A stretch of DNA of 44,196 bases from a virus (lineage: Duplodnaviria; Heunggongvirae; Uroviricota; Caudoviricetes): IMG/VR virus record IMGVR_UViG_2778261274_000007, positions 1-44,196 of that record. The stretch is one strand, 5' to 3'. Below, one piece after another: positions 1,369 to 44,196 of this stretch; the first letter of the stretch is position 1, and the number at the start of each line of letters is the position of its first letter. A model generated the notes under the pieces. The model did no database searches. It was not told the DNA's origin and worked only from the letters and a program-made list of their open reading frames with translations. A program made the translations under genes and the position numbers.

Positions 1369-1444
1369 GCCGATATAGCTCAGTTGGTAGAGCAGCGCAT
1401 TCGTAATGCGAAGGTCGTAGGTTCGACTCCTATTATCGGCACCA
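1369..1444 (+). tRNA. thrW: tRNA-Thr (anticodon CGU)
   Basis: 76-nt sequence GCCGATATAGCTCAGTTGGTAGAGCAGCGCATTCGTAATGCGAAGGTCGTAGGTTCGACTCCTATTATCGGCACCA; cloverleaf arms and CGT anticodon readable; ends in CCA. Confidence 0.9.
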
Positions 1445-1458
1445 TTAAAATCAATAAG

Positions 1459-2622
1459 TTACACATCATTAGTACCTTCCTTATTTTTTGACTGGGACAA
1501 ATTTGGGACCGATGGGTTCAGGATCGAGTCTATTTGCCGTGCGTGTTCAGTAAGGTGATTAGGTGCAAGGTGAGCATATCGACGAACCATTTCGATAGAC
1601 TCCCAGCCTCCCATTTCCTGTAACACTGACAACGGGACTCCGGCTTGAACCAGCCAACTTGCCCAGGTGTGTCTCAAGTCGTGAAATCTGAAATCATCAA
1701 TACCAGCCCGTCTCAGCGCCGCTTTCCAGGCTGTGTTTGCGTCATACCGCATCTTCCTTACTGTTGGCGCTTTCGTTCCGTCTGGTTTGGTACAGCTTTC
1801 CTTGTACACAAATACCCAACGGTGATGATTCCCGATTTGTTTTTTCAATACGCGACATGCAGTATCATTCAGCGCAACGCCAATTGCGCGGTTTGATTTA
1901 CTCTCTTCCGGGTTTATCCATGCCACCCGGCGCTGCATATCTATTTGTTGCCATTCAAGGTTGATGATGTTCGAGCGTCTTAAGCCTGTTGCCAGTGCAA
2001 ATTCAACAACAGACTTTAATGGCTCCGGACATTCATCAATCAGCCTTTGTGCTTCATGGGGCTCCAGCCAGCGGATCCGTTTATTCTTTGGTTGAGGCAC
2101 TTTAATAATTGGTGCCTTATCCAGCATTTTCCATTCACGCTCTGCGGCTCTTAGTAGGGCCTTTATAAATGAAAGATGCGTAGCCTTCGTTGCAACGGAC
2201 GCTGGTTTTGGCGTGTATTCTGGAACAGGTTTCCCTTTTTTTCTGCATGCTTCTGCCCTGAGTTTCCAGTTTTCCTCATGACGCCGGTTCGTCATTTTCT
2301 GCATTGCTGAATAAATTTTTGATTCAGTAATGTCTCTTAGTTGCATTCCTGCGAAATGTTGAAGCCAGAATCCGATCCGGCTTTTGTCATCGTCCAGTGA
2401 TTTTTTATGTGCTTTCTCTTCAAGCCACCTGACACACGCTTCCTCGAACGTTATATCAGGTATTTCACCAAGTTTGCTGACCCGCCATGCTTCAGCCTTT
2501 AGCTTGTCATGGAGTTCTGTCGCCTGCCTTTTGTCCTTTGTTCCAAGAGACTGTTTAAATCTTTTACCGTTCGGCAATGTGAAACTGGCGTACCATATTT
2601 CACCTCTGCGGAAGAGTGACAT
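1459..2622 (-). CDS. int: Tyrosine integrase, P22-type (387 aa)
   Basis: ORF adjacent to tRNA; C-terminal HDLRHT...RRYAH catalytic signature; P22 is known to integrate at thrW. Confidence 0.9.
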
Positions 2623-2849
2623 TTTCTTTCCTCTGTTATGCCATCACCCGCGCTCACCTGGACAGTATGCAGCGGAGACTGAAGAGCCGCAATGCAGGCT
2701 TGTCGTGTTGTGAGGTAAGGAGATTTATTCTTAGTGGGATCTTTGCGTGTTGCCTGAAGACGCCCTGTGCGTATCCAGTTAATGGCAGTCGGTCTGGATA
2801 TCTTGAGAAAATGACAGGCCTCATCGAGTGTGAGGCTGTATGGCTCCAT
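2499..2849 (-). CDS. xis: Excisionase (116 aa, start at internal Met of the 144-aa ORF)
   Basis: Immediately upstream of int; start overlaps the stop of the upstream gene (TGATG); P22 Xis-like sequence. Confidence 0.65.
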
Positions 2850-3154
2850 TATTTCACCTCTTGCTGTGACATTGTTGAAAAATGGATACCAGCTCGTTGC
2901 TGCCAGACGATCCAACCGAGAGTCATATCCCATGCCATGTATTCGTTATTGCCGTTTTTTGCTCTCCGACGATCTACTAAGTCACCGAAACGCTTTTCCA
3001 TGAATAATTCATAAGCTTCGCGTTCATCTGGTTCTACTTCCAGAGATAGGAGTGCGATTTCATAAGCACGGCGCTCAATATCGTCTCGCACGTCAAGGCT
3101 GCTGATACGCTCTTTAATTTCTTTAATCAGTTCTTTGTCGGTAAAAGTGGTCAT
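2849..3154 (-). CDS. Hypothetical phage early protein (101 aa)
   Basis: ORF in the early-left operon, translationally coupled to xis. Confidence 0.45.
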   Translation of the reverse strand: MTTFTDKELIKEIKERISSLDVRDDIERRAYEIALLSLEVEPDEREAYELFMEKRFGDLVDRRRAKNGNNEYMAWDMTLGWIVWQQRAGIHFSTMSQQEVK

Positions 3155-3516
3155 TATGCTCCAGCCTCCGGTGCTTTTGGCATTACTGCCCAGTGAGTGA
3201 TATTGACGTTTTCAAGGTCCCCGACCTGAAATGTCCACTGCCATTCTCCGGTTTCTTTTTGTCCCCAGGTGTACCAGAGAGAACGCCAGCCAATTAGCCA
3301 GCCTTCTCCGTTAGCATCGAATAACAAAACACTTTCATTTGCTGGTGGCAGTTCAGTTGACACTGGTATTACTTTGTTTTCCTGTGCTGCACATTTAGCT
3401 TCAAGCGCATCGAATTTACGCACCAGGTATTCAGCATCTGTTTCATTTACTTTCAGATCTCGCGGTACACATCTCCCACGAAGAAACCCTTCCATTTCGA
3501 AAACATTCATGCGCAT
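3154..3516 (-). CDS. Hypothetical phage early protein (120 aa)
   Basis: ORF packed tightly in the same operon. Confidence 0.45.
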   Translation of the reverse strand: MRMNVFEMEGFLRGRCVPRDLKVNETDAEYLVRKFDALEAKCAAQENKVIPVSTELPPANESVLLFDANGEGWLIGWRSLWYTWGQKETGEWQWTFQVGDLENVNITHWAVMPKAPEAGA

Positions 3517-41875: not shown

Positions 41876-42233
41876 GGCTGGTGAACTTCCGATAGGGCGA
41901 GTATTGAATGATTTACAGCCGTTATTGATTTTACATATTTTTTGTATGAAAGGATTAGCGCCTCCTTCCACCGATCATCCATGACTTTACGCCACTGTCT
42001 CTAGGACTGCTATGTATGCTGATTGGGGAAAGTGTGAAAGAAAAGAAGACTGCTGCGCTGTTTGTCGTCACCTTTATCTTCATTGGCTATGCAAGTCATA
42101 ATACAAGGTGGGACAAAACTGAGACACATAAGGCCTCACAATGGCTTGCAAGGCTTTACATGTTTTGATGTGGTGGGACGTGTGAGCGCAGTGTTGATGG
42201 GGTAATACTTTGAATTAGAAGCGGATTCTTATA

Positions 42234-42279
42234 ATTCGTAATGCGAAGGTCGTAGGTTCGACTCCTATTATCGGCACCA
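42234..42279 (+). repeat. attR: partial copy of the thrW 3' end
   Basis: 46 bp identical to 1399..1444. Confidence 0.8.
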
Positions 42280-42454
42280 TCCTACCTATTTTAACGTCTC
42301 CTTAAGTCTACTCAAATACCTTTTAAACCCTTATAATACGCGGCTTCACGGCCCTTGTTGTCTCTGCTCGTCTACTCACGTTCACAGAAATCTACGGTGA
42401 GTTGGGGGTATCAATGGGGGTATTCGCTGTTCGGTCTAAAGGAGATACCCCCAG

Positions 42455-43669
42455 ATGAAGCTCAATGCCAGACAGGTCGAGACTGCCAAGCCCAAAGATA
42501 AACCCTACAAGATGGCTGATGGTGGTGGCCTCTACTTATTGGTTAAAACTAACGGGTCACGCTACTGGCGTTTAAAGTATCGTATCGATGGAAAGGAAAA
42601 GTTATTGGCGCTGGGGGTATATCCCGATGTGTCTTTGGCTGATGCCAGAGCAAAGCGTGATGAAGCTCGAAAAGGTATCGCTGGGGGTATCGATCCTTTA
42701 GAGCTTAAGAAAGAACATAAAGCTGAGCGTGAAGCGCAGGTCAAAAACACCTTTCAGCAAATTGCGCTCGAATGGCACAGCATGAAAGTGAAAAAATGGT
42801 CAGTTGGGTATGCCTCTGACATTCTCGAAGCTTTCAATAAAGATATTTTTCCTTTTCTTGGTCAACGGCCTGTTGCGGACATTAAGCCATTAGAGCTTCT
42901 TAATGTGCTTAAAAAAATCGAAGCCAGAGGTGCAACAGAGAAAGCAAAGAAAGTGCGCCAACGATGTGGTGAAGTGTTTCGCTATGCCATCGTGACAGGC
43001 AGAGCCGAGTATAATCCCGCTCCTGATCTCACCAGTGCCATGCAGGGGCATGAATCTACACATTACCCGTTCCTGACCACCGAAGAGCTTCCTGCCTTTT
43101 TTAAAGCCCTTGCTGGCTACTCTGGTAGTGAATTGATGGTGTTGGCAGCAAGATTATTGATCCTTACTGGCCTAAGAACGGGTGAATTGCGTGGTGCCTT
43201 ATGGTCGGAAATCGATTCCGAGAAAGCGCTATGGGAAATTTCTGCTGAACGCATGAAAATGCGCCGTCCTCATATCATCCCGCTATCTACCCAAGCGTTA
43301 GCCATTATCGAAAAGATCAGAGCAATGACGGGACAATTCCCTTTGCTGTTTCCGGGCCGCAATGATCCAAGTAAGACCATGAGCGAAGCCAGTATCAATC
43401 AGGTATTTAAGCGAATCGGCTATACAGGACGGGTTACGGGTCACGGCTTCCGTCATACCATGAGCACCGTTCTTCATGAACAGGGCTACAACACCGCATG
43501 GATTGAAACCCAACTAGCCCATGTTGATAAGAATGCTATCCGTGGCACCTACAACCATGCGCAATATCTCGATGGCAGACGCGAGATGCTGCAATGGTAT
43601 GCCGACTACATGGTAAGCCTTGAGAAAGGCGGTAATGTCGTACAGGGAACGTTTAATCGGTGTGGGTAA
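42455..43669 (+). CDS. Tyrosine integrase, P4-like (404 aa)
   Basis: N-terminal KYRIDGKEKLLALGVYP arm-binding-type region; C-terminal HGFRHT and RGTYNHAQY. Confidence 0.85.
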   Translation: MKLNARQVETAKPKDKPYKMADGGGLYLLVKTNGSRYWRLKYRIDGKEKLLALGVYPDVSLADARAKRDEARKGIAGGIDPLELKKEHKAEREAQVKNTFQQIALEWHSMKVKKWSVGYASDILEAFNKDIFPFLGQRPVADIKPLELLNVLKKIEARGATEKAKKVRQRCGEVFRYAIVTGRAEYNPAPDLTSAMQGHESTHYPFLTTEELPAFFKALAGYSGSELMVLAARLLILTGLRTGELRGALWSEIDSEKALWEISAERMKMRRPHIIPLSTQALAIIEKIRAMTGQFPLLFPGRNDPSKTMSEASINQVFKRIGYTGRVTGHGFRHTMSTVLHEQGYNTAWIETQLAHVDKNAIRGTYNHAQYLDGRREMLQWYADYMVSLEKGGNVVQGTFNRCG

Positions 43670-43995
43670 GGATAACTGCTGATGAAAGAAGGGTTATGTC
43701 TTAACGGCCATAGCCCTTTTTCTTGGCTAATGCAGATAAGAATTAAGTCAGAATTTAAACTGATGTTTATTAAGTAATTGATTAATATGAAAATTATAAA
43801 ATACCTTGAAACAGGAAAATAAATAGCACTTATTGCTAAATCGCTCTACACCCCGCCCAGTGACAGCTCTCCCGCCATTTCATCTGTTTTTGTATGAAAA
43901 ACACTCAATTCGAGTTCAATTCTGATTTTCCGAGGGTTGAACGTCATAAGCGATCTGAAGATACTACATTCATCAAAACAACAACGGAGAAATAT

Positions 43996-44196
43996 ATGAC
44001 AACAAAAAAACTTATTCGCATGCCGGAAGTGATCAATAAAACAGGATTTAGCAAAGCATGGATCTATAGACTTATTAGTAAGGGGGATTTCCCTAAGCCG
44101 ATTAAGATTGGAATAAGAGCCAGTGCCTTTGTTGAAAGTGAGATTGATGAATGGATTGAACAACTGATCTATTCATCACGTAATACAGCTGCATAA
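43996..44196 (+). CDS. alpA: AlpA-family transcriptional regulator (66 aa)
   Basis: MTTKKLIRMPEVINKTGFSKAWIYRLISKGDFPKP resembles AlpA; GGAGA RBS; stop is the last codon of the window. Confidence 0.7.
   Translation: MTTKKLIRMPEVINKTGFSKAWIYRLISKGDFPKPIKIGIRASAFVESEIDEWIEQLIYSSRNTAA

Follow-up and report, generated by a model that had tools for sequence, protein, structure and literature searches.

The tRNA gene thrW is a classic integration hotspot (PMC7545054), and the stacking of elements at tRNA genes, with thrW among them, is already known, common and documented both computationally and experimentally. The Islander catalogue contains 125 tandems of at least two elements in 2,168 genomes and describes distinct crossover subsites in tRNA genes (PMC4383910), and in Shigella flexneri phage SfI integrates experimentally at the attL of a resident SfX prophage at thrW, placing the newcomer beside proA (Sun et al. 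2011, PMC3306764). Here we describe an occupied thrW locus on a 44,196-nt stretch of Caudoviricetes DNA (IMG/VR record IMGVR_UViG_2778261274_000007, positions 1 to 44,196; hereafter the window), in which thrW is followed by a prophage, a displaced 46-nt copy of the tRNA 3' end and the left end of a genomic island. An original prediction, made from the letters of this DNA, had proposed that a P22-type prophage inserted at thrW upstream of a pre-existing P4-like island. The window almost certainly holds two independent elements in tandem at thrW, and we put the probability that, in addition, the island was resident first and the phage entered the intact thrW later at about 0.75. The features that bear on this reading are the following.

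1-1254, plus strand: proA (glutamate-5-semialdehyde dehydrogenase), chromosomal left flank of the hotspot; Pfam Aldedh, with proA annotated at the same place in KFu023, K-12 and DP051.
1369-1444, plus strand: thrW, intact tRNA-Thr(CGT); ARAGORN, 76 of 76 nt identical to K-12 thrW.
1399-1444, plus strand: prophage attL core, the 3' 46 nt of thrW; 46-mer repeat.
1406-1428, with a second copy at 42241-42263, plus strand: equivalent of the annotated P22 attP core, ATGCGAAGGTCGTAGGTTCGACT; NC_002371 21300-21322, alignment of the reconstructed attP with P22 attP.
1459-2622, minus strand: prophage integrase (Int) of P22 type, a tyrosine recombinase of 387 amino acids (aa); PF00589, phrog_10426 and phrog_1 integrase.
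2499-2849, minus strand: prophage excisionase, 116 aa; phrog_2907 excisionase, E=1e-50.
42234-42279, plus strand: prophage attR core, the displaced 3' 46 nt of thrW; exact repeat, with island-only genomes matching from 42234, within their intact thrW.
42263-42279, plus strand: island left-end core TCCTATTATCGGCACCA, the last 17 nt of the attR copy; also at 1428-1444 in thrW.
42403-42453, just upstream of the int ATG: predicted island arm-type integrase sites TGGGGGTAT, direct at 42403 and 42415, inverted at 42445.
42455-43669, plus strand: island integrase (Int#2) of P4 type, 404 aa; Pfam Arm-DNA-bind_3, Phage_int_M and Phage_integrase.
43996-44196, plus strand: AlpA/Vis-type excisionase-regulator, 66 aa; PF05930, E=7.8e-20, PHROG 'excisionase and transcriptional regulator', start as called in relatives.

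The tRNA-Thr(CGT) gene is the only tRNA gene found in the window by ARAGORN and lies 114 bp beyond the end of proA. The 46-mer at its 3' end, ATTCGTAATGCGAAGGTCGTAGGTTCGACTCCTATTATCGGCACCA, is present in exactly two copies (1399-1444 and 42234-42279), on the same strand and with 0 mismatches, and was matched in 0 of 100 dinucleotide-preserving shuffles. Beyond the 46-mer the two copies agree for one extra base (T) to the right and for none to the left. The intact tRNA-Thr followed by a P22-type integrase, the recurrence of the 46-bp end and the P4-type integrase and AlpA directly after it had all been predicted, and all are borne out, with every predicted coordinate correct. To the right of thrW at attL, the adjoining 18 nt (1445-1462) are phage DNA, TTAAAATCAATAAGTTAC, similar both to the native thrW-downstream sequence TTAAAATCAAAGAGTTAC and to the P22 counterpart GTTAAATCAAATACTTAC (compared at L001 30171-30188 and L017 21339-21356); the likeness of phage and host thus reaches, imperfectly, past the 46-bp core.

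The prophage element extends over 1399-42279 with a unit length of 40,835 bp. Its ends converge on one contiguous SfIV attP, window 1399 onwards corresponding to SfIV 23198 onwards and the window up to 42280 to SfIV up to 23244, with the 46-bp core as the overlap, and this meeting of both ends fixes the prophage borders. The integration module is of the P22 type. Prophage Int is identical to P22 Int at 348 of 387 residues (90%) in a gap-free alignment, the segment 1399-2849 shares 80.7% nucleotide identity with P22 attP-int-xis, and the P22 attP contains the same 46-mer. The reconstructed prophage attP, with the 46 nt of thrW and xis adjoining, aligns with that of P22, and TGGGAC-type blocks are conserved in both arms. 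Megablast of the window against P22 returned 1399-2849 as the only match, with no other nucleotide similarity. A P22 or Lederbergvirus assignment for the whole phage was rejected, as only this segment matches P22 and the structural genes (sheath, tube, baseplate) are SfV/Mu-like. Both halves of 1369-42300 are 96-98% identical in nucleotide sequence to SfIV, SfV, SfII, SfI and several induced Escherichia coli phages over about one-half to two-thirds of their length (SfIV: 96-97% over 63-67% of both halves), as in an SfV/SfIV-like backbone integrated at thrW. The predicted name of P22-type prophage holds for int-xis-attP and fails for the rest; by homology, the phage is an SfV/SfIV-like temperate myovirus. 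No gtrA-gtrB-gtr(type) O-antigen cargo is found beside attP in this prophage. The sizes of its open reading frames (ORFs) are, gene for gene, those of the CRE1493 prophage annotated by the Prokaryotic Genome Annotation Pipeline (PGAP), which is without pseudogene flags, so that the prophage looks complete; over 18620-35131 (16.5 kb) the nucleotide identity to the CRE1493 prophage is 97.9%.

The second element is marked by an integrase of another kind. A full-length comparison of Int#2 with P4 Int gives 44% identity and an N-terminus that is almost the same, and the AlpA partner is 37% identical to P4 Vis/ORF88, whereas prophage Int and Int#2 have in common only 52 residues of the catalytic domain. 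The window contains five copies of the 9-mer TGGGGGTAT (0.2 expected), all within 288 bp (42403-42690); in addition to the three copies before the int ATG there are two inside the Int#2 gene (42612 and 42682), a layout mirroring the annotated P4 attP arm repeats TGGGGGCAT (NC_001609). In its domains, its likeness to P4 Int, its tRNA 3'-end core with arm sites and its AlpA partner, Int#2 is a P4-type arm-binding island integrase. IntF of the K-12 element CP4-6 was considered as a relative of Int#2 and rejected, the similarity being weak and confined to the catalytic domain.

The genes of the two parts adjoin physically and both parts lie between thrW and the next chromosomal gene, as they also would in one composite element, a prophage with the second integrase and AlpA among its own genes. 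To this alternative we give next to no credence. In SfIV, SfV, SfII and P22 the free phage genome is closed at the 46-bp core and lacks a second integrase. The same prophage is present in DP051, 99.99-100% identical, with about 3 differences over 26 kb (by segment, one mismatch across 11.8 kb, none across 5.95 kb and about 3 differences within 1399-9900), again without the second integrase, and its attR leads directly into native TTTAAATCAAGTAGTTACCCCATATTT and yagP'-paoD; L023, L025 and L029 are further prophage-only loci. The island in turn can stand by itself, with repeats and arm sites of its own: int-alpA directly follows an intact thrW in KFu023 and in 9 of 10 sampled genomes with the exact Int#2 protein. 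The same island is also found behind other phages or other cargo (W21, strain 190, D3 and L032), CRE1493 has the same type of phage followed by a different P4-type island, and eight genomes have the same phage-attR/island junction. On the genomes compared, the composite reading is already refuted. Both kinds of single-element strain that the original prediction had named for comparison, prophage-only and island-only, were thus found, and its view of two elements integrated at the same tRNA is supported by the SfIV attP, DP051, the island-only genomes and the unrelatedness of the integrases; a second integrase belonging to the prophage was looked for and ruled out by DP051, the free phages and the island-only genomes. 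The locus is a tandem array in the Islander sense, the island's own 16-nt fragment being seen only in relatives.

The DP051 copy of the prophage (L003/L019) has an internal deletion of 16.4 kb, corresponding to window 19956-36329 and removing most head genes and all tail genes, together with a frameshifted int. It is thus an immobilised prophage that keeps its regulatory, lysis and defence cargo genes, in a different proA background and with no island.

The window ends at the alpA stop codon (44196), and the island past alpA was read from relatives only, which are 99.6-99.9% identical to window 42280-44196 and in which the island measures 9-11 kb. Megablast with the cargo-island junction and with the left flank plus int, and exact-protein searches with Int#2, the EcoRII-type endonuclease and AlpA, gave as best matches sequences that were 99.2-99.8% identical or matched in part. 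The original prediction had called for a further tRNA-derived repeat beyond the window. Such a repeat, TCCTATTATCG-CACCA (16 nt), equal to the last 17 nt of thrW minus one G, ends the island in 13 of 14 scanned related loci in which thrW or a phage attR precedes a P4-type island. Inspection of a junction revealed it first, and a regular expression then recovered it across the loci. At each of the 13 it is preceded, 70-95 bp before the core, by at least one and usually paired TGGGGGTAT sites, and it is followed by the native thrW-downstream sequence or by another element. At the 14th locus (L016) the P4-type island is a different one, and its far end falls beyond the sequence of the locus. No third 46-mer, 25-mer or 21-mer copy turned up in the related loci at up to 3 mismatches, because the island repeat is only 16 nt long and has a 1-nt deletion. 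In the source genome, the island (about 10.8 kb, as in L013) would end about 8.9 kb past 44196 with TCCTATTATCGCACCA, followed by TTAAAATCAAAGAGTTACCCCATATTT and yagP'-paoD.

Beyond int and alpA the island in these relatives contains several small ORFs, a MobC/NikA-like protein, a PF03432 relaxase and a variable, defence-like distal cargo (RelA/SpoT with NA37 and DUF4231; RVT_1 with AAA_21; SEC-C with HEPN_AbiV; DUF6932; or DUF8370/8371). All relatives examined combine an integrase, a relaxase or accessory protein and direct repeats with the absence of a type IV secretion system, the window itself stopping at alpA; this gene content makes the island in the relatives an integrative mobilizable element whose integration module is of the P4 type. 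Nothing similar to P4 primase, sid, psu or delta is present in the gene lists of the island relatives. A P4-like satellite phage was rejected as an identity for the island, since the relatives carry the MobC/NikA-like protein, the relaxase and cargo instead, and so was the PIME family (int, alpA, repA and trbJ/trbL; bioRxiv 10.64898/2026.01.12.698999), the gene lists being without repA, trbJ and trbL. The predicted P4-like island is therefore P4-like in its integrase and arm sites and not in being a P4 satellite.

An identical Int#2 or AlpA with the island backbone is also found at proA-thrW in genomes with differing flanks (L010, L030, L033 and L034, with another upstream gene set and a proA neighbourhood unlike that of E. 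coli), and proA nucleotide identity is about 78-82% in L010, L014 and L015. The island's distribution points to spread between enterobacterial species. Distal cargo in the differently flanked genomes varies from genome to genome.

The arrangement can be accounted for by site-specific recombination at two neighbouring cores. Phage Int and Xis would recombine an attP bearing the last 46 nt of thrW; integration would restore the full thrW at attL and move the old 3' half with its attached DNA about 40.8 kb downstream as attR. On the standard integration model, the functional thrW would then derive from the phage on the right side of the crossover. The phage core (1406-1428) and the island core (1428-1444) would act as neighbouring parts of the same tRNA 3' half, the displaced fragment would keep the whole island core, and the island arm sites would be untouched. 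Since the island core lies inside the 46-nt fragment, the phage attR would double as the left attachment site of the island, in agreement with the junction role that had been predicted for it. Either element should then be able to excise alone, phage excision yielding a junction of the KFu023 type and island excision one of the DP051 type. The far-end 16-nt fragment is without the phage core, so that a P22-type phage entering an island locus would be limited to the intact thrW and would end beside proA.

Two- or three-element stacks at thrW are easily found, in either order. In W21 (L002 20224-30499) a phage and the island are followed by an IS1-truncated P22-type int. Behind the island, L006 (9780-19383) retains 190 nt of a P22-type int as a scar, and L007, L011, L014 and L015 have the left end of another P4-type island, different from this one.

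With regard to the order of arrival, 'island first' is favoured, not proven. An island-only locus, L013 (GCA_964056315.1), has 0 mismatches to the window in 1398 positions of the proA-thrW flank and 1 in 1917 of the island, whereas DP051, with its near-identical phage and no island, differs at 23 of 1398 flank positions. The occurrence of several different phages before the same island favours island first, and the decay of the distal P22-type elements in W21 and L006 fits older layers lying farther from proA. In the reverse order, an SfV-like phage would have entered an empty thrW and the island would then have used the 46-nt attR copy through its 17-nt core. That copy, with the whole island core and 29 nt of tRNA sequence to its left, would make a plausible attB, and prophage-only loci (DP051, L023/L025/L029) could serve as recipients. 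Of 5,426 complete E. coli genomes in the collection, 1,187-1,206 (about 22%) have a P22-type int directly after thrW. We nevertheless consider the reverse order unlikely, if still credible: in W21 and L006, where the P22-type element was clearly the earlier arrival, the island lies on its thrW side, the identical proA allele occurs with a near-identical island and no phage (L013) and the same phage with a different proA allele (DP051), and a single island stands behind several different phages. An attempt to read the order from att polymorphisms was rejected, as no base differs between the 46-nt copies, and the variation between strains in the next 18 nt to the right is compatible with either order.

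The proA alleles also bear on a further possibility, that homologous recombination imported or rearranged the array, as by exchange of a segment from proA to the island between carriers of one or both elements. Among E. coli loci with the same island these alleles differ by up to 3.4%, DP051 combines the same phage with another proA allele, and cargo modules have visibly been exchanged among unrelated prophages. The junctions, however, are exactly those predicted by site-specific recombination, and such an import would only move an array already built by integration, leaving the creating mechanism unchanged; we regard it as improbable. A functional tie between the neighbours is more doubtful still: prophage induction might activate the island AlpA/Int, making the island a phage-responsive hitch-hiker besides being plasmid-mobilised, or the island Int might excise a composite of about 51 kb by recombining the intact thrW with the far-end core, and no data support either.

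The sequence of events that we prefer is thus a resident island followed by entry of the phage into the intact thrW. The pre-existence of the island, as originally predicted, is favoured by the L013/DP051 flank comparison and by the SfI-SfX experiment, while the structure alone gives no order. Several points weigh against our reading. The order is not readable from the map because the island 17-nt core is present in both thrW and the attR copy, and a phage integrating first, with the island entering its attR, gives an identical structure. The flank comparison covers just 1.4 kb. The window stops at 44196, short of the island genes past alpA and of the third repeat, and ORF sizes and homology are the grounds for the apparent integrity of the prophage.

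The remaining features of the prophage are the following.

2849-12979: early region, including yfdT/R/Q/P-like genes, PerC, RusA, KilA-N and DUF968; Pfam, PGAP annotation carried over from DP051 (99.7-99.99% identical), 96-97% nucleotide identity to SfIV/SfV/SfII.
6739-7413, minus strand: S24 CI-like repressor.
7504-7704: Cro-like gene.
7748-8299: CII-like gene.
8644-9585: replication helix-turn-helix protein.
12632-12979: antiterminator Q.
12993-15432, minus strand: low-GC (32.9%) three-gene cargo cluster between Q and the lysis genes; Pfam Lactamase_B, PHROGs, GC content.
15769-37086: lysis; HNH, TerS and TerL; portal, protease and major capsid; contractile tail; Mu-like baseplate; tail fibres; CRE1493 match, 97-98% identity to SfIV and vB_EcoM-720R4.
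25568-27064: tail sheath.
35090-35109 and 37032-37051: 20-nt inverted repeats of an invertible tail-fibre segment of about 1.9 kb.
37113-37667, plus strand: Pin/Gin-type DNA invertase for the tail-fibre switch; Pfam Resolvase and HTH_7, phrog_125, pinE in DP051.
37725-41587: attR-proximal cargo; PADLOC, Pfam.
37725-38498, minus strand: PD-T4-3 GIY-YIG defence protein, full-length; PADLOC 4.7e-140.
38905-40338, plus strand: Dcm/EcoRII-type C5 methyltransferase; PADLOC MTase_II 4e-230, Pfam DNA_methylase.
40373-41587, minus strand: EcoRII-type endonuclease; PADLOC REase_II 2e-234, Pfam EcoRII-N/EcoRII-C.

The head of the prophage is of the HK97 type and the tail comprises sheath, tube and tape measure. 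Within the invertible segment, alternative genes for the fibre C-terminus and assembly lie on opposite strands. The slot between the tail genes and attP, which in P22 and the Sf phages holds gtrABC, is here occupied by PD-T4-3 and the EcoRII-type restriction-modification system; as a whole (37725-41971) it also holds a 106-aa ORF without a family. A cassette with the exact EcoRII-type endonuclease, a methyltransferase and usually the GIY-YIG protein adjoins the att end of unrelated prophages, among them some at thrW that are lambda-like (L004, L032) and others located beside smpB/ssrA (L020-L022, L024 and L028), and the exact endonuclease is present in 5,925 blocks of the genome collection. 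The low-GC cluster, which lies between Q and the holin and thus in the position of the Stx genes of Stx phages, encodes a metallo-beta-lactamase (MBL)-fold protein and proteins of 190 and 251 aa, all three in PHROGs of unknown function. The MBL-fold protein has weak PADLOC matches to the reverse transcriptase-associated MBL and to LmuA, and the cluster may be an uncharacterised defence or moron module.

For annotation, the analysis gives exact borders for an apparently intact, defence-carrying prophage and assigns the integrase that follows to a separate, probably mobilizable island, and the lengths of the displaced tRNA fragments (46 nt versus 16-17 nt) can be used for reading stacked elements at thrW. 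The arrangement itself is already documented and opens no new biological question; more noteworthy are incidental findings, the PD-T4-3/EcoRII cassette in place of gtr, the low-GC cluster between Q and lysis, and the DP051 prophage without structural genes. The main text of the defence-island paper by Hochhauser et al. makes no mention of thrW or proA, and PMC10484663 makes none of AlpA, MobC or thrW.

Among the systems described to date, P22 is matched by the prophage in its Int, its xis, the identical 46-bp att core, the conservation of the arm sites and the presence, between tail genes and attP, of a slot for cargo; the prophage differs in its contractile Mu-like tail, P22 being a podovirus with gtrABC. 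The island resembles P4 (NC_001609) in its Vis/AlpA-type excisionase, in a core at the tRNA 3' end and in the arrangement of two tandem and one inverted arm repeat upstream of int with two tandem repeats on the other arm, whereas the target is thrW instead of leuX and the arm repeats are TGGGGGTAT instead of TGGGGGCAT. CP4-6 of K-12 occupies the same slot, from proA-thrW to yagP-paoD, and likewise ends in a thrW-derived repeat followed by native TTAAAATCAAAGAGTTACCCC, but it is 34 kb long and has its integrase, IntF, at the far end, unrelated to both integrases described here beyond the catalytic fold.

As an array, the locus is close to the SfI-SfX tandem, with which it shares the phage family, the proA-thrW site, the placement of Int and cargo at opposite prophage ends, and a head-to-tail order with att cores between the elements. 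In that tandem both members are SfV-family phages with the same 46-bp core and gtr genes, whereas here the distal element is an island with a P4-type integrase using just the last 17 nt of thrW, and the phage carries PD-T4-3 with an EcoRII-type restriction-modification system in place of gtr. From the tandems of the Islander catalogue, whose members likewise each bring an integrase and a tDNA fragment of their own, there is no essential difference; the locus adds one more instance, in which a long-fragment (46-nt) and a short-fragment (17-nt) element are combined.

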